Shown piece after piece: positions 2,547 to 29,002 of a stretch of 29,002 bases of DNA (the first letter of the stretch is position 1; every line of letters starts with the position of its first letter). The notes beneath the pieces are model-generated. The model saw only the letters and a program-made list of their open reading frames with translations, had not been told where the DNA came from and did not search any database. This DNA comes from a virus. Taxonomy: Duplodnaviria; Caudoviricetes. The position numbers and the translations under genes were made by a program. The stretch lies in IMG/VR virus record IMGVR_UViG_3300027973_000167, positions 1 through 29,002 of that record; one strand, given 5' to 3'.

Positions 2547-4528
2547 GTGACACCTTGAAATTCTACGAGTTGCTGGCCGAGCAGCAAGAGCCGCACCCGT
2601 TCAAACGCGCTTCGGCAGAGTCATTGGAACGCATGGGCCGCGACAAGGCCGCCAGCTATGTGAACAGCCGCGCCGAATTGATTCAGCTCTCGCGTAAGCA
2701 GCCATTGTCCCATGCGTGGGAGCCTCCCATTTGGCGGCAGATTGACCTGCGCGTGGTGCGCAAGCGGCTGCAATTCCCTGGCCAGGTGCTCAAGGTGTTT
2801 GTCACCGGCGGCATGAGACCGGGCAAGACCTTTTCGTGTGCGCGGCGGATGGTGGCGCATTGGCTTTACACGCAGAACGCGGCGGTGTTCGCCTTGGCGG
2901 AGACGGTGGAGACGAGCCGCAGCATTCAGCAGAAGGTGGTGGAGTTCTTCTTGCCTGATGAGGTATCGCCCGAGGATGGCAAGCGCTCCGCCAAGAACAC
3001 CAAGACCGGCGGCAAGCATGAGCGGTTCAAGTTCAGCGGTGGGCACTTCACCAATGAGCAGTTCTCGCTGCTGGTGCCGGTGCTGGATGCGCAGGAGCAG
3101 GAATACCTGGGCGGTGGCGAGTTTGTGTTTCGCTTCTTCTCGCAGGGATTGGAACGCTTCCAGGGATTCTCCCTGACATCCGCCTGGAGTGACGAGCTGG
3201 TGCCGCTCACGCATGTGAAGGCAGTGCATGAACGTATGGTGACGCGGGCCGTGGACACACGAAAGCCTGCTTTCCTGGACGAGATGCGGTTAATCGAGCG
3301 CACGCTGGAAGAGGGCAAGCGGCTGACCGTGCGGCAGATGGGCATGCTCTACCACGGCGTGCACCTGATCAGCTTCACGCCCTACTTAGGCTGGAACGAA
3401 ACGGTGAATTATTTCCTGAATGGCGCAGTGAAGGGAGAGATGGAGGTGTCGCCAGACTTGGAGGGTCGGGACGGCGTGCTGGACCCGCGCGTGCCCCGCT
3501 TTGCCCAGCCGCGCGATCCCACGGCCTTGGTGGCCTACGTGTTCACCCAGGACAACCAGATTGCCCCCGCGTATGAGGGCCTGCGCGCGGAGCTGCGCCA
3601 TGCACCAGAGCGCGAGATCCGGATCAAGCTGCATGGCGACGTGAGCCAGGACAACGCGGTGGTGTTCTCCAGCTTCGGCGAGCGGCACCTGTGCGATTGG
3701 CAGGACCTGCCGCGCACGAATTGCACGCTGTGGGAGGTGATCGACTTCGGCAAGAAGAAGCCCGCCTTTGTGCAGTGGTGGCTGGTAGATGTGCGCGGCT
3801 ATCGCTGGCTGGCGCAGGAGTGGCCCAGCCCAAAAATAGGCATCCCGATTGATGGCCGCGTAGTCCTGCCCGGCCCGTGGGCCGTGCCCAGCGAAAGCGG
3901 CCGCGTGAATGGCGATGAAGGCCCGGCCTATCGTCTGGACCTTCGCTGGAACAGTGAGCGCATGGTGCGGGAGATTTGGGCTATGCGCGCGCGGCTGATG
4001 GCCAAGCTGAAGGAGACCGGGGCCGAGTATCAGGGCAGCATCCAGAGCGCGGAGCTAACCTGGACCAAGGAATTAAAAGATGCTGGCAAGACGCTGCAAG
4101 GCCCATTTGCCCTCCCCTACCAGACCATCCCCGACCCTCGCGGCGTGGAGGAGTCGATTGAAGGCGTCAAGCTAGGCAACAAATATGAGGAGTGCCAAAA
4201 CGGAATCCTGCTATCACCGTGGAAGGCGGACAACGGCGAAACGATTGTCAGCGCGCCGAGCGATGACGACGGCATCAAGCTCATCTTGGAAGACCTCAAC
4301 AGCATCATCGACGACGTGCCCATGATGCGCATCAACCGCGAGTGCGAGAACGCACAATTCATGCTGACCACCTTCGCCCTGCCACCGCACAAGGACGGCC
4401 CCGCCCGCAAGGATGAAGCCTGTGTGGAGAGCTTCGACTGCATGAAATACTTCCTAGCCTGGGACCCGTGGCATGTGGACCGGCAACGCTGGGTGGACAT
4501 GAACGCGGACGGCTTTGGCTACGGATGA
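2543..4528 (+). CDS. terL: Terminase large subunit
   Basis: Walker A GGMRPGKT, Walker B AWSDE, coupling motif SFTP, nuclease acidic motif VIDFG and C-terminal KDEAC...DCMKY. Lies upstream of the portal. Confidence 0.88.
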   Translation: MSDTLKFYELLAEQQEPHPFKRASAESLERMGRDKAASYVNSRAELIQLSRKQPLSHAWEPPIWRQIDLRVVRKRLQFPGQVLKVFVTGGMRPGKTFSCARRMVAHWLYTQNAAVFALAETVETSRSIQQKVVEFFLPDEVSPEDGKRSAKNTKTGGKHERFKFSGGHFTNEQFSLLVPVLDAQEQEYLGGGEFVFRFFSQGLERFQGFSLTSAWSDELVPLTHVKAVHERMVTRAVDTRKPAFLDEMRLIERTLEEGKRLTVRQMGMLYHGVHLISFTPYLGWNETVNYFLNGAVKGEMEVSPDLEGRDGVLDPRVPRFAQPRDPTALVAYVFTQDNQIAPAYEGLRAELRHAPEREIRIKLHGDVSQDNAVVFSSFGERHLCDWQDLPRTNCTLWEVIDFGKKKPAFVQWWLVDVRGYRWLAQEWPSPKIGIPIDGRVVLPGPWAVPSESGRVNGDEGPAYRLDLRWNSERMVREIWAMRARLMAKLKETGAEYQGSIQSAELTWTKELKDAGKTLQGPFALPYQTIPDPRGVEESIEGVKLGNKYEECQNGILLSPWKADNGETIVSAPSDDDGIKLILEDLNSIIDDVPMMRINRECENAQFMLTTFALPPHKDGPARKDEACVESFDCMKYFLAWDPWHVDRQRWVDMNADGFGYG

Positions 4529-4562
4529 ACACGCTAACAACACACCAACAGACAACTACACG

Positions 4563-5183
4563 ATGAGCAACAAACCCATTTTCTATCCTATCATCGACAA
4601 CGGCATGGGCCTTTCCGTCACCGCCTGGGCGATGTCCATGCTAGTTGCCACGGGCGGGGACCGCATATTCTGCCACATCTCATCCCCGTATTGCGGCTAT
4701 GCCATGGACATGGCCACGCACCAGTTCCTCGATAGCGAGTGTGATGAAATGGTGCTGATCGACACCGACTTGATATTCACACCGCAGGATTTGCAGCACT
4801 TGATGGAGCATTGCAACGAGCCGCTGGTATTTGGTGTTTACCCAAAGCGAAAAGTGAAGTTTGACCTGCCGCTGGTGACGCTGCCGGATAAGCCGCGTCC
4901 GTTTGATGATCCCGGCCCGTTGTGCGAGGTGGCCAAGACCGCGCGCGGATTCATGCGGGTGCATCGGTCCGTGTTTGAGAAAATGAAGCCCCATGTGCCG
5001 CTGCTCTCGGGCGAGTTTGGCAACTTTTACCACTTCTGGCCACTGGCACCGGACGGCACTAGCGAGGACTTCGCCTTCTGCGCCAAGTGGCGCGAGCTGG
5101 GCGGCAAGATCCTCATCGACAAACGCATCCTGGTTCGGCACGCGGGGCAGGTGACTTATCCCATTCACGCGCCGCACGCTTGA
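4563..5183 (+). CDS. GT-A fold (family 2-like) glycosyltransferase
   Basis: DxD in LIDTDL, then GVYPKR, GFMRVHRSVFEKM and SEDFAFC..WRELGGKI.ID....H.G. ATG at 4563 preferred. Confidence 0.75.
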   Translation: MSNKPIFYPIIDNGMGLSVTAWAMSMLVATGGDRIFCHISSPYCGYAMDMATHQFLDSECDEMVLIDTDLIFTPQDLQHLMEHCNEPLVFGVYPKRKVKFDLPLVTLPDKPRPFDDPGPLCEVAKTARGFMRVHRSVFEKMKPHVPLLSGEFGNFYHFWPLAPDGTSEDFAFCAKWRELGGKILIDKRILVRHAGQVTYPIHAPHA

Positions 5184-9978: not shown

Positions 9979-11208
9979 ATGGCCCAAGCCCTTTCTTCGA
10001 CCGTTCCCGCGCTCCATGAAGATCTAGCCGACGAGCTGGCACTTCTGGACAACGAGAACACCGTTTTTTCCTCCACCGTGCAGAGCGGTGGCAAAGCCGA
10101 AAACTCCTCTTACAGCCGTGTGGCTGACAGCCAACTCAGCGGCCGCCTTGGTGGCGTTGCTGAAGGTGCGTCCGTCACCCGTGCTAACGTGGCCAACCAC
10201 TTCGCCAACCGCGCGAAAATCTGGGGTGCCATCCAGCAGAAGCGCGAGACGTGGGGTGTGTCCCGCCGTGCGCAGAAGGTGGAAAACCCCGCCGGTGTGA
10301 ACAACCTGGAAGGGGAAGCCCGCTACCGTGGCCTGGAGCGCTACAAGCAAGGCAAGGAGCTAACGTATCTCAGCCGCCAGATCCAGAATGACAACGCCTA
10401 CTTCTACGACGACGAAGGCAACCTGAAGCAGGATTACCTGACTATGGGTGCCAGCGGCTGGGTGGACAGCAGCGCGCAGCCCACGGACAGCACTTATCAG
10501 GTGCCTAGCGCTTTCCGCCCCGGCAGCGCGCAGATCATCAACATTGCGACCGCATCCGCCTTCACCGAAGCCAATTTGCGCACGGTGATCAGCGAATGCC
10601 GCAAGGCCAAGCGCCGCAATGTGAAGCTGACCACGTTCTGCTCGGTGGACTTCGCCAATCAACTGGCGACGTTCTTCGACAGCGGCAGCACCAGCGGCAG
10701 TGTCACCCCGATCCGCCGTTTTAACCAGGACGGCACCAGCGGTGAAATCACCAGCAAGCTGACCGGCTATACCACGGCCTTTGGCAGCATGATGGTGGTG
10801 CCCACCGAACTGCTCAACGGCGTGCGCAACGCAGGCAGCCTGGCCGGTGCCAGCACCACCAACACCAACACCACGCTTACTGTCACCAGCACCGCTGGCC
10901 TGCAAAGCGGCATGTTGATCTATGGCACGGGCATCACCGCTGGCACCACCATTAGCACCATTACCAACAGTACCACGCTGGTCTTGTCTGCGGCTGCCAC
11001 CGCCACCGGTAGCCCAACTTTGACGCTGGGCACCAATGACCACGCGCTGTTCCTGGAAATGGAATACTTCTTCGAGATGCTGAACGGCATCGAAGAAGTG
11101 GACCTCTCGCCAGACGGCAGTGGTGCACAGGGCTACATCGAAGAGTTCTTCTCTTTGTACTGCTCCATGCCCAAAGTTCACGGCAAAGCGCACACCGTGC
11201 CATCCTAA
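9979..11208 (+). CDS. Major capsid protein (DUF5309/SU10-like HK97 fold) with inserted beta-domain
   Basis: HEDLAD...NTVF, EG, NRAKIWGAIQQKRETWGVS, YTTAFG...VVP and terminal P..HGK match the DUF5309-type pattern from memory. Follows the scaffold. Confidence 0.85.
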   Translation: MAQALSSTVPALHEDLADELALLDNENTVFSSTVQSGGKAENSSYSRVADSQLSGRLGGVAEGASVTRANVANHFANRAKIWGAIQQKRETWGVSRRAQKVENPAGVNNLEGEARYRGLERYKQGKELTYLSRQIQNDNAYFYDDEGNLKQDYLTMGASGWVDSSAQPTDSTYQVPSAFRPGSAQIINIATASAFTEANLRTVISECRKAKRRNVKLTTFCSVDFANQLATFFDSGSTSGSVTPIRRFNQDGTSGEITSKLTGYTTAFGSMMVVPTELLNGVRNAGSLAGASTTNTNTTLTVTSTAGLQSGMLIYGTGITAGTTISTITNSTTLVLSAAATATGSPTLTLGTNDHALFLEMEYFFEMLNGIEEVDLSPDGSGAQGYIEEFFSLYCSMPKVHGKAHTVPS

Positions 11209-17532: not shown

Positions 17533-18257
17533 TCAGGATGCCCACATCTCTTACCTCGCCCTGGGCGGGCATGGCCGTGGTGGGCGGTACTGGCGTGCAG
17601 GTCAGTGGGCATGGTCGACAGTCTGTGGTGCACGGCTCGCCGCAGGCCCCGCAACTGATCCCACCCGCTGACCAGCCCGTGACCGATGCGGGTGCCCGCG
17701 GCCCCACCGGACCCACCGGACCTAGAGGCTTGCCGGGCGACACCGGTGGCCTGGGCTCACCGGGTGCTCCCGGCTCACCGGGTAGTCCAGGGCTACCGGG
17801 CGATCCCGGCGGCACGGGGCCGCCCGGTGGCAGTGGCGATCCCGGCCCGCCTGGTCCCCCTGACAAGAACGCCATCGTGGACACCGCGCTGGGCATTCAT
17901 CGACTCAGCGCCATGGAGGCACCCGAGGCCCTGTTTTATGATCACCTGCACATCGACGTGGCCCCAGGCGCGATGGAGACGCGCACGCGCATCGATGCCC
18001 GTTTTCTCGCCAGTGTGGAGGCCAGCACCACCGTGTGCTGTGCAGCCGTGCCTGACCGGCTGATGACGGTAGCGGCCCGTGTGCACGGCGACATGCTGCA
18101 CTTGTTTACCGAGCCCGGCCCAGTCACCGTGCAGGTGATGATCAAGGCGACCCGCAGCGGTTTTGCCACGCGCCGTTTCCCCACGGCCAGCCGTGCTGAG
18201 CTGGAACGCAGCCATACCATGTGGAGCCGGATCAACGGCTACGCCCCTTTTGCCTGA
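17529..18257 (+). CDS. Collagen-like fibre protein
   Basis: 19 uninterrupted Gly-X-Y triplets, followed by a KNAIV...MEAPEALFYD domain of the kind seen at fibre C-termini. Confidence 0.8.
   Translation: MIRMPTSLTSPWAGMAVVGGTGVQVSGHGRQSVVHGSPQAPQLIPPADQPVTDAGARGPTGPTGPRGLPGDTGGLGSPGAPGSPGSPGLPGDPGGTGPPGGSGDPGPPGPPDKNAIVDTALGIHRLSAMEAPEALFYDHLHIDVAPGAMETRTRIDARFLASVEASTTVCCAAVPDRLMTVAARVHGDMLHLFTEPGPVTVQVMIKATRSGFATRRFPTASRAELERSHTMWSRINGYAPFA
17691..17861 (+). repeat. Collagen Gly-X-Y repeat (19 triplets)
   Basis: GAR GPT GPT GPR GLP GDT GGL GSP GAP GSP GSP GLP GDP GGT GPP GGS GDP GPP GPP. Confidence 0.95.
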
Positions 18258-18261
18258 TGCC

Positions 18262-18879
18262 ATGAGCCTACCCTATCAGCTTTTCTCCGCGCTTTTCACG
18301 CCAGCCGAGTGCGCGGAGCTGCGCGCCTATGCCCAGGGCCGCCCCGCGCAGACCGGCACCGTAGGCTATGGCGGAAAGCAAACCGTGCATGACATGCGCC
18401 GCGCAGAGGTCCGCTGGCTAGACGTGGCGGATGAGCACCTGACTACGCTGATGGCCCGGCTCCACAAGTCCCTGCACCGAGCCAATGCCAACCACTGGGG
18501 CCTGGATTGGAAGGCGCTGCTGGACGTGCAGTTCAGCACCTACGCGGCCTGGAATGCGGGGCACTATGACTGGCACTGCGACGACAACCGCGGCGCGGTT
18601 CATGCGCGGCCCTTTGACCGCTTGCTTAGCGTGGTAGTGCTGCTTTCGCCCCCGGCGGAGTTTGAAGGCGGCACCTTCCAAGTAAGGCCTGAACTAGACG
18701 AACAAAATGTACCATTGACACAGGGGGATTGTGTTGTGTTTCCATCCGGTTTGTTGCACCGTGTCACGCCGGTCACGCAGGGCGTGCGGCACTCTCTGGT
18801 AAGCTGGGCCGAGGGGCCACGCTTGCCAGTCCCAATTACCAAGCCTGAACCTGTACAGACGAAAGGACGCAAACGATGA
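18262..18879 (+). CDS. 2OG-Fe(II) oxygenase (PKHD / prolyl 4-hydroxylase-like)
   Basis: HxD in YDWHCD, EFEGG, distal His in VFPSGLLHRVTPV, and 2OG-binding RxS in RHSLVSW. Confidence 0.92.
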   Translation: MSLPYQLFSALFTPAECAELRAYAQGRPAQTGTVGYGGKQTVHDMRRAEVRWLDVADEHLTTLMARLHKSLHRANANHWGLDWKALLDVQFSTYAAWNAGHYDWHCDDNRGAVHARPFDRLLSVVVLLSPPAEFEGGTFQVRPELDEQNVPLTQGDCVVFPSGLLHRVTPVTQGVRHSLVSWAEGPRLPVPITKPEPVQTKGRKR

Positions 18880-20861
18880 GCCAATACACCCCCAGCTATG
18901 GCCAGCCCGTAGGCGGCCCCACGTGGATGGGCAGCGCGCCCCGCCCGAAACCCTTAGACCTCTTCACGGCCAGGGACCGCATCAATCAAGCGGGTGATCC
19001 GGCGGCTCGCCGTGCCGAGGCCATAAAGCTGGGCTATAGACCCATGGACGCACCGCCTCAATCCCAAGATGGCCAAGGTGGTCGTGGTGGCCGCAAGAAA
19101 ACCCCGCCAGGCCGCCCTGGTTACCCACGTCCAGGCCGCCCGAGCGACAACTGGGGCGATGGAGGTGGAGGTGGAGGTGGAGGTGGAGGTGGAGGTGGAG
19201 GTGGAGGTGGAGGTGGAGGTGGCGGTGGCGGTGGTGGTGGTGGCCCCAGCTACAAGTTCGCTCCCACCAATTATGAAAATGGCAACCGCTACAATGCCGA
19301 AGGCTATCGCGCCGACGGGCGCAAGAAGACCGAGGGCTTCAGCGCAGACGCAGCAGGCCTGCCGGACTATGGCGGGCTCAATGAGTTCTACGCCAACCAA
19401 GAAAGCACGCCCGGCAAGGAAGGCATGCCCGCCACCCGCACCAACCCTGCGTTTTATGCTGGCAGTGAGGACAACAACCAGCCGCCCACCTCGCCGGAGA
19501 TTGCGGGGCAGTTGGACAAGCGGAATGAGACGTTGGTGCCCTTTGCAGGCGGTATCGCCAGGACTAACAAACCCGGTGTAGGCAACTTTGATGAAGGCGG
19601 TTTTTTGCGCGCGGGCGAGACTGGCAATGTGGTGCAGAACGGACGGCCTGAGTTGGCTGTGCCGCTAGATGGCAGCGCCCCAGTGCTGCTGACCGATCCC
19701 ATGGAGATGAAAGCAGCCAAGGATTTGGTGATTCTCTCAAACGATCAACTCAAGCAACTGCCGCAGCTGCGCCAGGACGGCATCACGCCGCTAGGCGGTG
19801 GGCGCGCCGTGATGAGCAATCAGTATGGCACTGGCCTGGCCATGCCCGGCGCGGGCGGTTTGCCCATGGCGGATGAGCGCGGGGTGATCGACGTGGAGGC
19901 GATGAAAGCCAGCAAGGGCCGTGCCTCCATGGCAGCTTTTCCAGACGGCTACGTGCTCCAGAAGGATCGCCCCGGCCTGCGCTATGTGCCTGATCCATTG
20001 GCAGGCACGCCCATGGGCACGATGAGCGGCATCATGCCGAATGATCCTGCGCTGGTGCGTCAAGGCATTGCTCAATTCCAAGCGGCCAATCAATCCGCTA
20101 CCAATGCGGTGAACGCTGTGGACCCCGCCGCCTTGGCGGCTGAAATGCAACTGCGCAATCCCCTGCTGCGCACCTGGGAAGCTGGAGGCGGCACGCAAGG
20201 CCGCCCGCTGCCGAGCACCATGCAAGCCGCCGCGCCCCGCTTCATGCCGGGTCAAGCGCCGCTGGCACAGCAGGTGGGCTTGTCCACTATGCCCGGCCTG
20301 CCCATGTCAGCGGTGCGCGATGGCATGACCTCCATGAATCGTTTCCTGGACAGCCGCGCAGGGCGTGATGCCGTGGGGCAGCAGATGCTTCAGCAGGCAA
20401 TGACGCCGCCAGAAGTTCCGCTGCAACCCTGGGCGCTGCCGGTGCCGGGTGGCAATGAGGTCATCTATGGCGTGGGCCGCAATGTGATGGGCACGCGCCA
20501 AGCCCCCGAGCCGCAGAGTGATGAAGACCTGCTTGCCGAGGCCTACCGTGTGGACACGCCGGAGGAACTGCGCGCGCTGATGGGCAAGACCCGGAACATG
20601 GCCATCATCAAGGAAGCTCGTTCACGGCTGGACAAGATGACGACCAGCACCACGCCTACCGATGAAGTTTACTGGGACCCCGTCAACCGCAAGATGGTGA
20701 AGATCCCCAACGACCGCTTGCCCCCTGAAGGTGAGAACTGGGTGCCGATGAGAAGGAAGGGTGAAGCAATGCCTGCGCCGGGTGGTGCGGGGGCTGCCGC
20801 CGTGCCCGGCCAACGTCGCCCAAGCAGCTTTATTTCTCGCGTTGCACCTCCTGCTCAGTAA
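18876..20861 (+). CDS. Probable internal virion/ejection protein with poly-Gly tract
   Basis: Low-complexity Pro/Gly/Met/Gln composition. FDEGG...GRPELAVP resembles the tape-measure/ejection-protein GG...GPE..VP motif. Precedes the giant ORF. Confidence 0.6.
   Translation: MSQYTPSYGQPVGGPTWMGSAPRPKPLDLFTARDRINQAGDPAARRAEAIKLGYRPMDAPPQSQDGQGGRGGRKKTPPGRPGYPRPGRPSDNWGDGGGGGGGGGGGGGGGGGGGGGGGGGGGGPSYKFAPTNYENGNRYNAEGYRADGRKKTEGFSADAAGLPDYGGLNEFYANQESTPGKEGMPATRTNPAFYAGSEDNNQPPTSPEIAGQLDKRNETLVPFAGGIARTNKPGVGNFDEGGFLRAGETGNVVQNGRPELAVPLDGSAPVLLTDPMEMKAAKDLVILSNDQLKQLPQLRQDGITPLGGGRAVMSNQYGTGLAMPGAGGLPMADERGVIDVEAMKASKGRASMAAFPDGYVLQKDRPGLRYVPDPLAGTPMGTMSGIMPNDPALVRQGIAQFQAANQSATNAVNAVDPAALAAEMQLRNPLLRTWEAGGGTQGRPLPSTMQAAAPRFMPGQAPLAQQVGLSTMPGLPMSAVRDGMTSMNRFLDSRAGRDAVGQQMLQQAMTPPEVPLQPWALPVPGGNEVIYGVGRNVMGTRQAPEPQSDEDLLAEAYRVDTPEELRALMGKTRNMAIIKEARSRLDKMTTSTTPTDEVYWDPVNRKMVKIPNDRLPPEGENWVPMRRKGEAMPAPGGAGAAAVPGQRRPSSFISRVAPPAQ
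19161..19244 (+). repeat. (GGAGGT)10 microsatellite plus 8 more Gly codons (28 Gly)
   Basis: Perfect hexamer repeat at 19161-19220, then GGC/GGT codons to 19244. Confidence 0.95.
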
Positions 20862-20869
20862 ACTGCTCC

Positions 20870-23800
20870 ATGCCGATTGACACCGAACAGTTGGATGTGG
20901 ATTTGGAAGCTGTGCGCGCTCTGCCGGACTGGCAGGACGAGGGCAAACGGCGGGGCTTGATTCGCTCGCTCTCCGCCAACAGCTACGCCGCGCAGGACCC
21001 TGAGCAGCACCAGGCCTTTACCTCCAAGCTGTGGGAGGCAGCCGATCCGCGCAGCACCTTGCAGAAGGCGGGTGAGTTCATTGGTTCGGCGACTGAGGAG
21101 GTGGTGAAATCCATCCCCGCTGTGCCTGCGGCGGCAGCGCTGGCGATCACGGATGCCACGGGCCAGACGGACACGGGCAGCGGCTTTCGCTTGCAGCGTG
21201 GTGTCATGGATCTTGCCGAGCAGGGCTTTCAACGTGCCAAGCAATTCGCTGTGGGCGAGGGTGCGGTGGGTGCCACGCTGAACACCATCATGGGCGCAGC
21301 ACGCCTAGCAGGCCTGCCAGTCCCTGCCAGTGCCCAAGCGGAACGCGATCAAACCCTGACCGCGCTGAAGCAAGACATCGACACCGGTGCAGTGCCTGAC
21401 AGTGTGGCGCGCTGGCTGGCTGGTGCTGACGTGGGCGATGATCCCGATGTGAAGCAGTGGCAGGATGGCCTGAGCCGTGGTCTAGGCGAGGCCGCACTGA
21501 AGGCGCAGGGCATGGGCACCGTGCAGCCCGAGGCGCTGGATGCTTGGCTGAAGAGTGATCGCAATCCGTTGCGCGGCGGCATCAACGACGACAACACGGA
21601 CTTTTCCACGCGCGACATGCTGGCAGATTACCTGGCCACGCGCGACCCGCAAAGCTGGAATGCGTTTACCAATCGAGTCGCAGAGACCAATGGTCAATAC
21701 CAGACCCGCATTGGCCGGGCCGTGCGCGAGGGCACGCAGCTTAAGCAGATGGGCCAAAATGGCCTAATGGGTGAACTGCTAGGCCGTGGTGCCGACATGC
21801 AGGGCAGCCCGATTGACCTTGCCAGTGCAGCGCTGCCTCTGCTGCGCGGCATGAAGCTGCTAAAGGCGGTAAAGGAAGGAGCCAGTGGCCTGCGAGGCAT
21901 CGCTGCCGGTATGGGTGAGGAGTTCGCCCAGGAAGCAGGCACCGAATACCTTGGCGATGCCCGAGCCAGTGACATGCAAGTGCTTGAAGCCGGTGGCATG
22001 GGCGCGGTGGGCAGCGGTGTGCTGGAAGGTGGCTTTGCCACGGCGGGGCGTGTGCTGCGCAATCGGCCAAACGCTGAACTGCCCCCCATGCAGACTGGCA
22101 ACCCGCAGATCGATCAGGTGAATGCAGTGCTGCGTGCCAGCGGGCCGAGACCCAACGGCCCCATTTCGCGCACGGGCATCGCACGCGCTGCCGCACAAAG
22201 GCTATCGGAGCTGGAAAGGGCAATGCTGGGGCCTGTCCAAGTGGGGCGTGACGGTCAGGTGGAACAAAACATTAGCCGCCGTCTGAACACGCAAGAACAA
22301 GAGGAGTATGATTTCTTGCAGGCCGCCCTAGACGACCCCGCCGGACCTCAGCATGAGAAATTGGCCGCTGCCTATGGCTATGACCTGAAGGCGGTGAACC
22401 AGGTGCAGCCCTCCGAACTGCCCATGGGCAACGAGGGGGCGAGCGATGAGGACTTTGATGCTTTTGAACAGACGCGTGCCCTAGCCTCACAGAGACCACC
22501 TACAACGCCTGCTTCACCTTTTGCCAGTGTAAATGATAGGAACGTCCCAGCAAATGCCCCCGCCTCTAGCGGTATGGCGCAGGGCGTTGTGGGTTCGACT
22601 CCCGCCGCTGGCACCGATGTTTCTTTTGATCCTGCGGAAATACTCCGCCGTCGCCGTGTTCAAAATGAGCAATACACTGTTTATAACTCAGACGGGGATG
22701 TTGATCGAGCGGCATCGCAAGCCAAACGTAATACGGCGGCGGCGGCGGCTGGTTTGTCACGGGGCGACTGGGAAACCCAAAACTCAGCGGCCAACACTCA
22801 AGCAAAGAAAGATTTCTTTGCAGCGCTAAATAAAGGGGATGAAGTAAGCTGGACAGATTCAAACGGCAAAAGCCGCACCGGGAAAGTCGAAGTAAGTCTG
22901 AATGGTGAAAAGCAGGTGCGAGACACCACTGAAGGGTCCGCTGCGCAAGATTTCCTTTATGGATGGCAGACAGGGGAGTTTGACATGAACTCCAGTTCCT
23001 TGTCAGTAAAACGAAAGGGTTCAACTCCACCCACTGGCACCATTCCTTCAGAGTTTGAATATGCTTTGACATTGGCCGAGCGCCTTGCCAGCCAAGGCGA
23101 CACGGCCGCCTCAGAATCAGTGATTGATCTTGTTAGGACCAAGTTGGCAGCGTTGACCACAAAACAGCCACCCCCTGGTTGGTTTTTAAGTGGCAAAACA
23201 CCAGAGCAATGGGATGAACAGCGGGCTGTCAATGAACAGCTCCAGCAGCAGATCGAACAGCGGCTTGCGAAACCACCAGCACGCACCAACCGGGAACTGG
23301 GAACCAGGAACCAGGAACCCGTCCCTTCCATCGACAACATCGGGACCAAGTTCGCCCCGCCACAAGTTCGAACAGTGCCGGTGATCCCTGATAACCCGCT
23401 GGGGTATCGCGACTCGCTCGACTTCCTGAACGAGATGCCGATTGCCATTTCGCGCAGCGGCACAGGTGGAGAGCTGGACTGGCAGGAGACGGCTAACATT
23501 CCCAAGTATTACCGCCCGTTCATTGCCAATGAGCAGGGCTTGCCTATCGACGTGGTGGCGGAGGCAGCTTATGAGGCCAACCTAATCCCGCAGCCCACCG
23601 CCGACGCGCTGATGAAGCGGGTGCAGGAGGACATCGGCGCGCGCAGGACCTACCGCGTGCAGGGCCGCGAGCAGAAAGCCGAGCTGCTGACCCGCGAGAA
23701 GCAGACCGTCAGCTTTGACAAGTCGCAGACCAAGCTGGGCAACAAGGCCACGGCTGTGCAAGTGCCCTTTGACTCGCTGGCAACGGGGGATCAACTGACC

Positions 23801-26800
23801 ATTGACGGCGAGCAGGTCACCGTGCGCGCGGTGGAGTCGGACGAAGACGGCTACCTGACCAAGGTGGTGCTGGAGGATGGGAAAAAGTTCGGCGTGCAGG
23901 AGTTCAACCCGCAATCCCGTGAGGGTGTGTTTGTCGATGCCTTTGACCCCAAGCCCCGGCTGGCTGGGGAACCGGAGGTGTTCAGCCCGGCGCAGACAGG
24001 GGATGCTGTGCCGAGCGGTCTTACAGAGGCAGAGGTCAAGCGTTGGCGCAAAATTGAATTCCTGGCCGGAAAATACAATCTGGACCTGAGCGCCGAAGAT
24101 CGTCCGTTTGATGATTGGCGTGAGGTTTGGCTCAACTTGCGGAACGCAAGGTCCTGGCTGGAGGTAGCGGCAAGCTACCGCAGGGGCGAAACGAAAATAT
24201 CACCAGGAGCTATTGAGCGGTTTGCAAAGCAGCAATCAGGCTATGCAACTAACGCTATCAGCAACGCTGAGAAAATGGCGGTCACAGCCCTTGCTAAAAG
24301 CGGGCAACAGCCCAAGCCAAAAATGGGATTCCGTTTGTTGGGCAAGGTAACAAAGACTCCGTGGGGAAGCCGTTACTACCATTTCGACTACAAAGGACAG
24401 TGGTGGTATGTCAGAGTTGCTGATCATGCAAACACTGCCAACCGCGCTGGCATTGATGACAACACACTAGGCCGTTATTACACAACTTCGGGAATGAGTC
24501 TGCCCCAGCGGTTGAATATCGTGCTGGATGAACCGGCCTCATCCGATGCTGTCGCTTTGGCTTATGCTAAAAGTGGCGTGGAAGCAGCGCTTGAGCAGTT
24601 CGGCCTGACCAAAGACGATGCAGATAACTATTATCAGCCCGTTTTGAGAGGCAAGGACGGAAGCATTACCTTCGATGATCCCGAGTATTTGCAGGAACAG
24701 TTAGCAGAATCGCGAAACGAAAAAGCTCAGTCAACGCCGCTGACCGGACAAGCCGGGGAGAGCAGATTGGACATGCTAGGCAGAGGACCGTCGAAGACTG
24801 AGCAAAGCAAGTCTCCACCATCCACCGCCGCCGTCAACCCCAATCTCAACCCCGCTGCTTTGGAATCCCCCGCACGCGGCCTAGGCCGTGGCTTGGGTGC
24901 AATACTGGGGCAGCCACCGCCGGGGGCTGCGACCTCACAACGGCCAACAACAACGGCACCTGCCAATGCGCCCGCGATGTCGCAGGCGTTGTTCGATCGA
25001 GCGCGTGCAGTCACCAGCCAGCAAGCATTGCCACCGGTGGAGCTGGAAGAGCTGTTCACCCGTGCGCGAAACCTCCTGGCCAATGACGGCAGCATGGAGC
25101 TACGCCCGTCTGACCGCACGGTGATCCCGCAGGCGCTGGCCAAGCTGGCGGCGGGGGAGAATCCGCAGCTGATCGTCAACCAGTGGAAGGAGCACCGCAA
25201 TCAGGTGCTGATGGGCCGGACCACGGCTGCCACGCCGTTTGCGGAGTATGCGCAGGCAACAACTGACCCCGGCACGCCACGCGCGCGCCTGCTCTCCGCC
25301 TACGCACAGCTCGACCGCACCGGCCAGGGCTATGTGCGCATCCCCGACCTAGTGCGCGCCTCGGGCCTGCCCATCGCCGATGTGCGGGAGGTGCTGATTG
25401 ATCTCAGTGATCGCAACCAGGCCTACCTGACGCCTGCGGACGAGCCGCGCAACATCCCGGCTGGTGACCGCTCTCTGTTAGTGGTCGGCCCCAGCGGCCC
25501 CTCGCTCTACGTCACCCTGCCCAATCCAGCAGCGCTGGCGAGCCCTGCACAGCTAACCGCGCAAGATGCTGCTTACATGGCCGCTGTGGAAGCGGGCGAC
25601 ATAGATAAGGCATGGAGCATGGTAGTGGCGGCGGCAAAGAAGGCAGGATTGAGTGACTTATTATTTCACGGCACCGACTCAGAGTTTACCGAATTTGACG
25701 CAAAGAAAGCAGGCAGCAGAACTAGGGGGCCGAAAGCCAACCTAGCCTTTTGGTTCACTGAGAGCGAAAACCACTCTTTAGAACGCGGATCAATATCAAT
25801 GCCTGTGTTCCTGAAATACGAAAACCCTTTAACTATTTCGGAACTCACAGATACTTTTACGGCTGGAAACATTGTCGAGCGTGCTAAAAACTCAGGACAT
25901 GATGCGGTTATCTTTGAAAAGCTCGATGACTTGGACGGCAGCTCTGACGGGGTATATTCAGTGGCCCTTATTGTTAATGACAAAGTGGCGACACAAATCA
26001 AATCTGCCGATCCCGTCACCCGCGACGAACAAGGCAACGTCATCCCGCTTTCCCAGCGGTTCAATTCCGACTCAGACAGCATCCTTTACTCTCCTCCCAC
26101 CGTTTCCAGCCGAACCGTATACAAACGCAACACGACGCTGAATAAGGCCGAGCTGGCTCGGCTGGGCTTGCCGACAGATACGGGTAAATCGGTGCAGGGT
26201 CAAAAGCCGGTGAAGGAGGCGCTGAGCCGGATCGCCAAGGATAAGCGCCTGCCCGTCACGGTGCGGCGCATGGCCAAGGAACTGCAAAACGCGGACCTCA
26301 GCGGGTTGTATTTCCAAGTCGTTGCCGATGGCCGCAAGCAATACACAGGCCTCTATCAACCGCTGCGCGGCGGTCAGGGCGAGTTGGTGGTGAATTTACG
26401 CCACCTGGGCAGGGGCAATGTAGACCCCGCGCTCAACATGGCGGAGACGCTGGTGCATGAGGTGCTGCACCATGCCACCTACCGGGCGCTGCGCGGGCCG
26501 AAGAACGACGTGCAGAGGGCCGCCATCGGCAACCTAGAGCAACTGCGCCGCCGCGTGAAGGCCGTGCTGGGCAGCCAGCAGATGGCGGACTTTGATTATC
26601 AGACCAAAAATATCGACGAGTTCATCGCCGCGCTGTTCACGCAGAAGCCGTTCCAAGACGCGCTGGCCGCCATCCCGGCGGAGGCGACGCCGAAGAGCTT
26701 GGTGCAGCAGGTGCGCACCATGCTGGACGAGGCGTTCCGCTTGCTGGCCGAGATCGTGACCGGGAAGAAGGTGCCGCCGGGCAGTGTGCTCGATGCCGCC

Positions 26801-29002
26801 TTCCAGAACGCGCTGCGACTGGTGGAGGACGGGATGCGGGTGGCGGGCAACTACCAAGCCCTGCCCGGTGGCGGCATGCTCTCGCGCACGCCTAGCCTTC
26901 ACGGCGTGACCCCCACGCCGCTGCAATCCGTGCTCGCTCACCACGGCACGCCGCACAAGGTGCGCAAGTTCAGCTTGTCGAAGATCGGCACGGGCGAGGG
27001 TGCGCAGGCTTACGGGTGGGGACTTTACTTTGCGGAAAGCAAGGCGGTTGCTGAGGGGTATCAGCGTAAACTTTCGGTCGCAAATGAATATGCCAGAATG
27101 GCCCTGCAACTGAAGGGGTCCCGAGCAGCTGCCGTGGATTACATGCGCTCTGATTCGTGGGACCAAGCCAATAGCGATGTTAAGGCCGCTATTGGCGAAC
27201 TCCTCAACGACAATACCCAAGGCAATCTCTACACCGTCGAGCTTCTCCCCGACGAGGGCGACTTCTTGGACTGGGACAAGCCGCTGAGTGAGCAGTCAGA
27301 GAAGGTGCAAGCAGCGCTGGCTGCGATTATTGATAGTGCGGCCAAGTCATTTCCAACACTGCGCGGAAATAAGCAAGCGAGCGGTGCTGGCATCTATCAG
27401 GCATACGCAAGCCATCGCGGCGGTAACGCTCAAGCCGCAAGCCAAAAACTAGCTGAACTTGGCATCCCCGGCATCAAATACCTGGACGGCGGCAGTCGTG
27501 GCGCAGGCGATGGCACGCGCAACTACGTCATTTTTGACGAGAACCTGGTGCGCATCCTGGAAGAGAACGGGCAACCAATCAGCACCCCACCCCTCGCCTC
27601 CCCCGCCCAGCCCACCGGCCAAGTGCCCAGCCAAGCGGTGCCGCTGAAGCCGGAGTTTGGCGGGGCGTTTCCGGGGCATCTGCCTTACAAGGCCAAGGAA
27701 ATGCGTGAGTGGGCTGATGAAATCGTGCGGGAAATTGGCGGTTATACACAAGTGGCGGCGCAGGTGGAAGGAGGCCGTTTTTCTGAGGCGCAAGTGCCTT
27801 TCGTTTTGACTAAAGCAATCCTGGAAGCCGCATCCGTTGTTGGGGGTGCCAAGACGCAGGCGCAGCAGATAAGTGCCCAGGCGCAATTAAACCGTCTCCG
27901 CGCGCTGCTGAACCCGCAGAACAGGGTGGCGGGCCAAGCCCTGGTTGCGCAGCGCGATGCGCTGGGACCGATGCGAGATCGCGTGCCGGGCCTAGCCGTG
28001 GACGAGGCGTTGGAGAAGGCGCAGGTGCAGACCATTGATGCCGCGATCCCCGTGCAGCCCACGGTGACCGGCCTAGCCGATCTGACCACGCAGGCGAGCA
28101 CCGAGGCGACAGAGACGGTGGGGGCAATGCTGGAGGCTGAAGGCTTGGGGCTTGAGGAAGCCGACAGCACGCCGCAGGAGCAGGCGGCGGGCGAGGCTGT
28201 GCAGTCAGACTTGGAGGCCGAGGTGCTACGGCTGAAGCAGATGCAGACGGCGGAGAGGAATCAGTTCTCCCGCCTGACTACGAAGCTCCAGAAGATCCTC
28301 GCCACGTTGCAGGCCTTCGCAGGCAACAAGGGTGCGGTGATCGCGGGCGTGAAGGCGCGCCTGGCCGCACGCCGCGCTGCCCGTGCCAACACGGTGGCGG
28401 CAAACAAGCTGCAATCGCTGAGTTCCCCGGCCCAAGGCATCACGACCCCCACGCTGCCGGACACAGCGCTGGACGATGGGCTTGAGGTGCTGCTTACCCA
28501 GGGCATCCAGATTGACGACTGGAAGGCCGCCATGACCAAAAAGCTGGGGCCGAAATATGCCAGCCAGCTCACCGACCTCTATGAGCGTGCCGTTGACCTC
28601 TATCAGGCGGAATTGACTGCGGCCCATGCCGAGGTGGAGAAGCGGGTGAAGGAGAAAAAGGCCAAGCAAAAGCCCACGACCCGCCCGCAGCCGCAGCGCA
28701 AACCCCTTGCCCAGAGCTTTCCCGACCTAGCCAAGATGCTGCGCAAGCTGGGGCCTGCGATCAGCGGCTTGAATTGGCGGCAGATCATGACCAGCACTGC
28801 CACGGCCCAGCGCCAGTGGGAGCTGGACACCTATGCGCAGATCCGCCAGCACCCAAGGCTCTCCGCTTTGTCACCGGAGCAGGCCAAGCAACTGACCCGC
28901 GAACTGTCCAAAGCCTGGCAGCGTGAACGCCGGAAGGTGTGGAAGCGTGAACTCGAGAAGACCCTGATTGCCGCTGGCATGGCCAAGCCGAAGCACCGGG
29001 CG
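20870..29002 (+). CDS. Giant polyvalent virion-delivered protein, 3'-truncated (at least 2711 aa)
   Basis: Hand translation from ATG 20870 (MPIDTEQLDVDL...) found no stop up to the window end. Contains ART-like domains (~25556-26083, ~26939-27570), zincin HEVLH (26456-26470) and a winged helix (~25277-25519). Confidence 0.9.
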   Translation, partial: MPIDTEQLDVDLEAVRALPDWQDEGKRRGLIRSLSANSYAAQDPEQHQAFTSKLWEAADPRSTLQKAGEFIGSATEEVVKSIPAVPAAAALAITDATGQTDTGSGFRLQRGVMDLAEQGFQRAKQFAVGEGAVGATLNTIMGAARLAGLPVPASAQAERDQTLTALKQDIDTGAVPDSVARWLAGADVGDDPDVKQWQDGLSRGLGEAALKAQGMGTVQPEALDAWLKSDRNPLRGGINDDNTDFSTRDMLADYLATRDPQSWNAFTNRVAETNGQYQTRIGRAVREGTQLKQMGQNGLMGELLGRGADMQGSPIDLASAALPLLRGMKLLKAVKEGASGLRGIAAGMGEEFAQEAGTEYLGDARASDMQVLEAGGMGAVGSGVLEGGFATAGRVLRNRPNAELPPMQTGNPQIDQVNAVLRASGPRPNGPISRTGIARAAAQRLSELERAMLGPVQVGRDGQVEQNISRRLNTQEQEEYDFLQAALDDPAGPQHEKLAAAYGYDLKAVNQVQPSELPMGNEGASDEDFDAFEQTRALASQRPPTTPASPFASVNDRNVPANAPASSGMAQGVVGSTPAAGTDVSFDPAEILRRRRVQNEQYTVYNSDGDVDRAASQAKRNTAAAAAGLSRGDWETQNSAANTQAKKDFFAALNKGDEVSWTDSNGKSRTGKVEVSLNGEKQVRDTTEGSAAQDFLYGWQTGEFDMNSSSLSVKRKGSTPPTGTIPSEFEYALTLAERLASQGDTAASESVIDLVRTKLAALTTKQPPPGWFLSGKTPEQWDEQRAVNEQLQQQIEQRLAKPPARTNRELGTRNQEPVPSIDNIGTKFAPPQVRTVPVIPDNPLGYRDSLDFLNEMPIAISRSGTGGELDWQETANIPKYYRPFIANEQGLPIDVVAEAAYEANLIPQPTADALMKRVQEDIGARRTYRVQGREQKAELLTREKQTVSFDKSQTKLGNKATAVQVPFDSLATGDQLTIDGEQVTVRAVESDEDGYLTKVVLEDGKKFGVQEFNPQSREGVFVDAFDPKPRLAGEPEVFSPAQTGDAVPSGLTEAEVKRWRKIEFLAGKYNLDLSAEDRPFDDWREVWLNLRNARSWLEVAASYRRGETKISPGAIERFAKQQSGYATNAISNAEKMAVTALAKSGQQPKPKMGFRLLGKVTKTPWGSRYYHFDYKGQWWYVRVADHANTANRAGIDDNTLGRYYTTSGMSLPQRLNIVLDEPASSDAVALAYAKSGVEAALEQFGLTKDDADNYYQPVLRGKDGSITFDDPEYLQEQLAESRNEKAQSTPLTGQAGESRLDMLGRGPSKTEQSKSPPSTAAVNPNLNPAALESPARGLGRGLGAILGQPPPGAATSQRPTTTAPANAPAMSQALFDRARAVTSQQALPPVELEELFTRARNLLANDGSMELRPSDRTVIPQALAKLAAGENPQLIVNQWKEHRNQVLMGRTTAATPFAEYAQATTDPGTPRARLLSAYAQLDRTGQGYVRIPDLVRASGLPIADVREVLIDLSDRNQAYLTPADEPRNIPAGDRSLLVVGPSGPSLYVTLPNPAALASPAQLTAQDAAYMAAVEAGDIDKAWSMVVAAAKKAGLSDLLFHGTDSEFTEFDAKKAGSRTRGPKANLAFWFTESENHSLERGSISMPVFLKYENPLTISELTDTFTAGNIVERAKNSGHDAVIFEKLDDLDGSSDGVYSVALIVNDKVATQIKSADPVTRDEQGNVIPLSQRFNSDSDSILYSPPTVSSRTVYKRNTTLNKAELARLGLPTDTGKSVQGQKPVKEALSRIAKDKRLPVTVRRMAKELQNADLSGLYFQVVADGRKQYTGLYQPLRGGQGELVVNLRHLGRGNVDPALNMAETLVHEVLHHATYRALRGPKNDVQRAAIGNLEQLRRRVKAVLGSQQMADFDYQTKNIDEFIAALFTQKPFQDALAAIPAEATPKSLVQQVRTMLDEAFRLLAEIVTGKKVPPGSVLDAAFQNALRLVEDGMRVAGNYQALPGGGMLSRTPSLHGVTPTPLQSVLAHHGTPHKVRKFSLSKIGTGEGAQAYGWGLYFAESKAVAEGYQRKLSVANEYARMALQLKGSRAAAVDYMRSDSWDQANSDVKAAIGELLNDNTQGNLYTVELLPDEGDFLDWDKPLSEQSEKVQAALAAIIDSAAKSFPTLRGNKQASGAGIYQAYASHRGGNAQAASQKLAELGIPGIKYLDGGSRGAGDGTRNYVIFDENLVRILEENGQPISTPPLASPAQPTGQVPSQAVPLKPEFGGAFPGHLPYKAKEMREWADEIVREIGGYTQVAAQVEGGRFSEAQVPFVLTKAILEAASVVGGAKTQAQQISAQAQLNRLRALLNPQNRVAGQALVAQRDALGPMRDRVPGLAVDEALEKAQVQTIDAAIPVQPTVTGLADLTTQASTEATETVGAMLEAEGLGLEEADSTPQEQAAGEAVQSDLEAEVLRLKQMQTAERNQFSRLTTKLQKILATLQAFAGNKGAVIAGVKARLAARRAARANTVAANKLQSLSSPAQGITTPTLPDTALDDGLEVLLTQGIQIDDWKAAMTKKLGPKYASQLTDLYERAVDLYQAELTAAHAEVEKRVKEKKAKQKPTTRPQPQRKPLAQSFPDLAKMLRKLGPAISGLNWRQIMTSTATAQRQWELDTYAQIRQHPRLSALSPEQAKQLTRELSKAWQRERRKVWKRELEKTLIAAGMAKPKHRA
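22523..22616 (+). other. tRNA-like element inside the giant CDS (degenerate, probably not a functional tRNA)
   Basis: Acceptor GCCAGTG/CGCTGGC, T8-A9, T-arm GTGGG-TTCGACT-CCCGC, discriminator A then CCG. No canonical anticodon arm. Confidence 0.6.
23001..23042 (+). other. Second, truncated tRNA-3'-end-like element
   Basis: GGGTTCAACTCCACCCACTGGCACCA, 21/25 nt identical to 22591-22615 and ending in ACCA. TGTCAGT (23001-23007) pairs with ACTGGCA. Confidence 0.5.
23293..23320 (+). repeat. Heptamer tandem repeat (GGAACYV)x4
   Basis: GGAACTG GGAACCA GGAACCA GGAACCC. Confidence 0.8.

Follow-up and report, generated by a model that had tools for sequence, protein, structure and literature searches.

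ParA is a conserved and often essential motor. The locus described here raises the question of whether a very large phage protein carries, within its chain, a copy of the peptide with which ParB engages this motor, and what use the phage could make of it. The window, i.e., the whole stretch of DNA that was analysed, is a virus record of 29,002 bases (IMGVR_UViG_3300027973_000167, Caudoviricetes) that represents a partial genome. Sequence comparisons revealed a conserved peptide that looks like a mimic of the ParB N-terminus, placed behind a likely cut site, which suggests an undescribed route by which an infecting phage could grab the ParA motor.

The polyprotein and its modules

The window encodes a DnaB helicase, a terminase, an SU10-type capsid and tail-like genes, and the gene of interest is the last one, located after the terminase, capsid and tail-like genes in the position of a late virion gene (Table 1). 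The full-length database counterpart of its product, P0011, has 3445 residues, and its module is 100% identical. Two stretches of the polyprotein correspond to ART-PolyVal, and the overall architecture is that of a shuffled multidomain polyvalent protein. All 11 module-bearing proteins have at least one copy of HExxH; despite this motif, the polyprotein of the window has no match to a Pfam peptidase family.

Table 1. Features of the polyprotein and of the capsid gene in the window
Feature	Positions	Strand	Basis or remark
Major capsid protein	9979..11208	+	SU10_MCP, E 1.8e-9
Large polyvalent protein	20870..29002	+	Stop-free ORF of 2711 aa in the window, incomplete at its 3' end
Junction motif LESP, candidate processing site	24860..24871	+	Starts at aa 1331; recurs at module borders
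Putative ParB-type ParA-binding motif, RGLGRGLGAILG	24875..24910	+	aa 1336-1347; directly behind LESPA
Flexible linker, Pro/Ala/Thr/Ser/Gln-rich	24911..24982	+	Predicted unstructured
Four-helix domain, W..HRN signature	24983..25252	+	AlphaFold2 pLDDT 70-92
Winged-helix domain	25277..25516	+	AlphaFold2 and fold search
Junction motif LASPAQ, closes the module	25535..25552	+	Motif recurrence; GC drops to 0.494 in the module that follows
ART-PolyVal ADP-ribosyltransferase module (next module)	25658..26008	+	PF18760, E 8e-16 for the whole protein
Zinc-peptidase motif HEVLH (HExxH) of a candidate processing enzyme	26456..26470	+	Motif

The peptide-bearing segment is a discrete module, since the SPAQ motif recurs and the GC content changes in steps at the junctions, from 0.534 to 0.677 (peptide module), then to 0.494 and to 0.643. 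Four copies of SPAQ are found in the polyprotein, a number that 0/5000 shuffles reach; SP[AP], a pattern picked post hoc, has seven copies (12/5000 shuffles reach seven). A motif of the hydrophobic-x-Ser type lies upstream of the peptide in 11/11 proteins, and it is there that the chain would be cut. The module that precedes this motif varies among the proteins, and still the leucine of the peptide lies five to eight residues past the junction serine in all 11. The flavour of the junction goes with the lineage: the seven proteins with HE[VA]LHH have mostly xSP, and the four with HE[LV]GH have S[KRQ][AG]. None of the other junctions bears a segment like this peptide.

Within each polyprotein the junction flavour is uniform; the sites in the window are at 23978, 24860, 25535, 26084, 27593 and 28418. 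The inserted variable modules tend to have GL[TS]E[AG]E at their beginning and PP..AVN[PD] at their end (approximately 24017-24850 in the window; also P0003, P0006, P0010, P0012-P0014 and P0016). Comparison of P0003 with P0004 revealed an insertion flanked on both sides by the junction SKAGPQR, which hints at a specific module-shuffling process.

The gene that precedes the polyprotein (18876-20861) encodes 661 residues, includes a long poly-glycine stretch and matches nothing in Pfam or PHROG; its product is possibly another ejected protein. A 2OG-Fe(II) oxygenase (18163-18879), a glycosyltransferase-like ORF (4515-5183, assigned by eye) and a phrog_3704 gene (1324-2016) lie among the structural and packaging genes. 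The capsid protein shows an insert (approximately residues 280-355) with matches to repeats of very large host proteins and of other phage proteins.

A ParB-type peptide behind a junction

The available part of a report on M. xanthus ParB indicates that ParA binding requires L11, L15, L18 and I19, and that R13 is required for stimulation of the ATPase, which is reduced by the substitution R13K (PMC12462528). The spacing of these residues (L11, R13, L15, L18, I19) is matched in the phage polyprotein by L1338, R1340, L1342, I1345 and L1346. A reading of the locus from sequence only had proposed a ParB-like peptide directly after LESPA, and this was confirmed: RGLGRGLGAILG lies at 24875-24910, and LASPAQ at 25535-25552. 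The peptide has the LG(R/K)GL string and the two trailing hydrophobic residues that define the motif in ParB/Spo0J, and no second GLG[RK]GL occurs in any of the window's six frames. From the composition of the protein, GLG[RK]GLx[AS][LI][LIFM] would be expected 5.5e-6 times and its minimal form LG[RK]GLxx[LI][LIFM] 3.6e-4 times. With a ParB N-terminal profile made from 38 unique Verrucomicrobiota ParB windows, RGLGRGLGAILG scored 17.0 bits, above the best site in 300/300 shuffles (mean 2.7, maximum 15.6). The AlphaFold2 model predicts that the peptide and the linker are unstructured, with pLDDT below 50; the peptide has no secondary structure in the model and lies outside the fold.

Look-alike strings are present in unrelated viral frames (labelled by eye); therefore, the string alone is insufficient to establish a likeness to ParB, and it is its position and conservation that carry the case. 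DNA scans of IMG/VR with motif patterns gave 0 loci in one scan, 26 in another (22 parsed, of which four are true ParB and the remainder short or off-frame) and 42 in another (29 parsed, none recognisably a polyvalent protein). A loose pattern applied to 151 genomes matched at about the rate of its reversed control and was uninformative.

Conservation of the module

Relatives of the module were collected with phmmer against 1.84 billion representatives (eight matches), with a region search of proteins of 1491-4745 aa (11 matches, the one from the window included) and with a search of proteins of 406-2000 aa (one match). It had been anticipated that a lack of conservation in homologous modules would speak against the ParB reading; the motif was found right after the junction in the 10/10 other full-length polyproteins that bear the module. 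Their peptides are RGLGRGLGAILG, ..GDMLG, ..GALLG (in four of them), ..GEIMG, ..GTMGL, ..AELMG and RELGKGLAELMG. These proteins form four clusters that are 39-55% identical in the helical domain, so they count as four independent lineages and not as ten. R, L, G, G and L are the same in all 11 peptides, and the central residue is R in ten and K in one, the same swap that is seen in ParB. The two trailing positions are hydrophobic in 11/11 and 10/11 (the peptide of P0006 lacks the last hydrophobic residue), and the flanking columns agree in 3-9 of the 11. Scored with the profile of 38 ParB windows, the peptide is the top ParB-like site in each of the 11 module proteins.

The conserved unit is formed by the junction, the peptide, the linker and the helical domain. 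Counting against a role in ParA binding, the peptide is missing from three of the 13 other proteins that have the helical domain (P0002, P0008 and P0010). Another 14 related polyprotein ORFs lack both the peptide and the helical domain. A protein search of IMG/VR detected no relatives of the module; among cultured phages there were relatives neither of the module nor of the capsid, and the 8000 candidates of 66-247 aa that were scored included no stand-alone module protein. Matches in the atlas were all below 0.9.

Short ORFs that start with RVELALDVERGR (L028, L029:341-1075, P0002 and P0009) contain the winged helix and HExxH without the peptide; the helical domain is present in some of them and absent in others.

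Domains that follow the peptide

The sequence-only reading had also described a linker, a small helical domain and a winged helix after the peptide, an arrangement that AlphaFold2 and the fold search bear out. The linker is poorly conserved among the homologues, with 17-40 residues, and the four-helix domain stands directly behind the peptide and linker in 11/11 proteins. This domain has no family match and no informative fold match (best Z 5.4), which is not proof of a new fold. For the predicted winged helix, the best fold match was to another winged helix, with Z 8.6, rmsd 2.7 and 73 aligned residues. Foldseek returned nothing at E ≤ 0.001. A likeness of this region to EF-hands (best E 0.0015) was rejected, given that the model matches winged helices. 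As predicted, the module is a helical bundle plus a winged helix and not a ParB-CTPase fold; in agreement with the proposed absence of the ParB CTPase domain, no ParBc or TIGR00180 match was found in the module or in the whole protein.

The idea that the winged helix is a fixed partner of the peptide was not supported. It adjoins the helical domain in 8/11 proteins and is separated from it by an inserted module in the other three, two of which show a junction-like motif between both domains; it also occurs elsewhere without the peptide, and it is neutral to acidic rather than basic (Lys+Arg do not exceed Asp+Glu in 4/4 proteins checked). Given that the winged helix splits off in 3/11, lacks a basic character and has a homologue in a host protein (see below), a fixed DNA tether is not established. 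Tethering of DNA by the modelled domain is possible.

The host and its ParA and ParB

Related polyproteins were found in three Prosthecobacter contigs and in one Lysobacterales contig. The capsid is 37-38% identical to the capsids that phage regions of two Prosthecobacter genomes encode, with 23% identity in the other genome, and in one Prosthecobacter contig the prophage adjoins 35 kb of genes that by eye resemble host housekeeping genes. From these relationships the host is likely verrucomicrobial. The Prosthecobacter relatives behind this assignment do not carry the peptide, a point against the reading as a ParA ligand. No ParA was detected in the 29-kb window (best E 1.6), and the best parS-like site there matched 11/16 positions of a parS consensus. 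ParA was likewise found in 0/5 related phage records, four of which are at least 90% complete; an integrase is present in two of the five. Because neither the window nor any of these five records has a ParA, the target, if the peptide acts, would be the ParA of the host.

The comparison with host ParB was based on 60 verrucomicrobial loci, of which 53 were parsed with the motif, five were unparsed and two had variant motifs. The distance from a Met to the motif leucine is 5-9 aa in 50/53 parsed host ParBs, versus 5-8 aa from the junction serine in the phage proteins, and the Gly found at +5 in the phage peptide is also present in 26/38 unique verrucomicrobial ParB windows. Other data count against a close match: in a leave-one-out comparison all 11 phage peptides (6.7-23.5 bits) scored below the lowest host ParB (24.6 bits), and those of P0006 and P0017 (6.7 and 7.7 bits) did not exceed the 9.9 bits that one related polyprotein, which lacks the module, reached at its best site. 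In addition, 28/28 parsed ParBs of the Prosthecobacter family sample have K where the phage peptides mostly have R. A profile of peptide plus domain matched 2/401 Verrucomicrobiota genomes, and the better of the two matches was to the N-terminus of a ParB and the linker behind it (E 1.8e-5). As for the receptor, Y59, E93, L130 and L133 are kept in 26/26 verrucomicrobial ParAs, the residues being equated with the M. xanthus pocket by numbering offset only.

In two Prosthecobacter genomes the best parA sits on a different contig from parB (L043:1309-2295 and L054:1222-2298), and the gene that precedes parB in both is one that we take to be YicC-like.

Possible mode of action and alternatives

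Judged by its motif and context, the peptide of the phage polyprotein probably binds ParA. In the sequence of events that we favour, the polyprotein would be packaged and ejected like other polyvalent proteins; the HExxH peptidase would cut at the serine junction, so that, similarly to ParB, the motif leucine would lie five to eight residues from the newly made N-terminus; and the four hydrophobic residues would enter the pocket where the two subunits of the ParA dimer meet, and the Arg/Lys would stimulate ATP hydrolysis. The effect would most likely be local, i.e., incoming phage DNA would be coupled to nucleoid-bound ParA, or ParA would be cleared from that DNA, by an adaptor similar to ParZ that acts on the incoming DNA or on the ejected protein. 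ParB dimers stimulate ParA far more than single ParB peptides do; since single peptides are weak activators and few copies are presumably injected, local action is favoured over cell-wide sabotage. As a complete chain of delivery, junction cut, binding of host ParA and local adaptor action, drawn by analogy with known systems, this is a tentative proposal. In general terms, verrucomicrobial phages would inject a self-cleaving polyprotein that frees a CTPase-free ParB mimic, with which a phage devoid of partition genes would commandeer host ParA within the first minutes after infection, a view that we hold as an almost even possibility.

The same binding could instead be harmful, if the module, once released, or large amounts of the protein produced late in infection competed with ParB or discharged ParA throughout the cell and thereby blocked segregation or replication control. 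The motif evidence is common to this outcome and to the adaptor, the winged helix is dispensable as a partner, and neighbouring modules such as ART-PolyVal are of host-attack types; moreover, the phage prefers R, and in M. xanthus the ATPase is stimulated less after the substitution R13K, according to the available part of that report (PMC12462528). Nevertheless, we consider it unlikely, since a small number of injected copies and the low potency of single peptides are ill-suited to a cell-wide effect, and a temperate phage, as the integrase in 2/5 related phages points to, would gain little by crippling segregation at entry.

It also seems improbable that the peptide does a different job as a conserved amphipathic segment rich in glycine, its likeness to ParB being convergent. 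Such a job could be a glycine-zipper contact, a membrane or channel contact in ejection, or part of the protease signal, and G1339-x3-G1343-x3-G1347 does follow a zipper pattern; G is found at +9 in 10/11 phage proteins versus 8/38 host windows, and similar strings occur in proteins that by eye resemble tape measures and methyltransferases. On the other hand, the segment is confined to this one junction, is too short and polar to span a membrane (19-mer hydropathy of at most 0.25), and has substitutions (R to K, free +5/+6, hydrophobic +7/+8) that track the ParB pattern. We regard it as very unlikely that the segment is a passenger devoid of function, be it a chance string or the captured 5' end of a ParB. 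The motif is near-invariant, while the linker differs in sequence and in length (17-40 aa) and identity in the helical domain has dropped to 39-55%. In favour of a passenger are the resemblance of the segment to a host ParB N-terminus plus linker and the occurrence of the helical domain without the peptide in 3/13 other proteins.

Relation to known systems

The adaptor reading finds its closest parallels in known groups of proteins. With ParB/Spo0J the phage peptide shares, as far as the available parts of PMC12462528 and PMC12704722 describe, the motif, the spacing of its one basic and four hydrophobic residues, the R/K alternation and the flexible linker; it differs in being internal to a polyprotein that has no CTPase domain, and neither a parS-like site nor a cognate parA was found in the window. 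The available text of a ParB fold survey treats the motif solely within ParB proteins (PMC12704722). Judged by sequence, the module would work like a ParB N-terminus and yet is not a ParB.

The closest precedent is ParZ of Borrelia, a non-ParB protein with a grafted ParB-like peptide that is able to control ParA; a phage origin of the carrier was proposed, and phage ParZ-like proteins without the peptide were described in the accessible part of that work (PMC9712426). The phage polyprotein likewise bears a ParB-like peptide on a non-ParB protein; compared by description, ParZ is a chromosomal host protein with the peptide at its natural N-terminus, whereas the phage peptide stands behind a putative cut site. 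For polyvalent proteins, virion packaging has been reported and self-processing proposed, in the available parts of PMC5512222 and of the phi24B gp47 study (bioRxiv 10.64898/2026.04.10.717836). These proteins, and phi24B gp47 as far as its report is available, resemble the one in the window in their very large size, late-gene position, shuffled modules, ART-PolyVal and HExxH. In contrast, the ParB-like domains that the accessible text of both sources describes are nucleases unrelated to partitioning, with no link to ParA noted, and no ParA-binding peptide module is mentioned there. The literature searched, which mostly excluded subscription papers, contained no phage protein that mimics the ParB peptide. 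If correct, the adaptor reading would represent short-motif mimicry by a phage directed at chromosome segregation, and a phage-borne counterpart to the graft proposed for ParZ; it would also provide a cheap readout of polyvalent protein processing, because activity should depend on exposing one defined N-terminus.

A host counterpart of the winged helix

The winged helix of the module is homologous to the C-terminal domain of a chromosomal protein of the Verrucomicrobiaceae (hhalign probability 96%, E 1.5e-9). A two-domain profile matched 50/145 genomes of the Prosthecobacter family; among the best 20 loci, 17 correspond to the C-terminal domain of a chromosomal protein of approximately 285 aa and three to other large proteins. 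The domain shared with the phage module is the best-conserved one of the host protein; the latter differs from the phage module in being chromosomal, in its length of approximately 285 aa and in having no ParB motif noted. The phage winged helix may have been copied from this partner of a host ATPase, which would make it a second host mimic.

The host gene (loci L185:1474-2391, L187:910-1806 and L252:7786-11118) lies directly upstream of a gene for a STAND/BrxD-like ATPase of 715-800 aa. A role of the pair as a defence system was considered and rejected, the BrxD likeness being weak and below the cut-off, with no defence neighbours seen by eye in 3/3 loci; the pair is not named in the available part of the BREX paper (PMC12839542). 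The winged-helix protein and its ATPase are a possible unnamed two-gene unit of the host.
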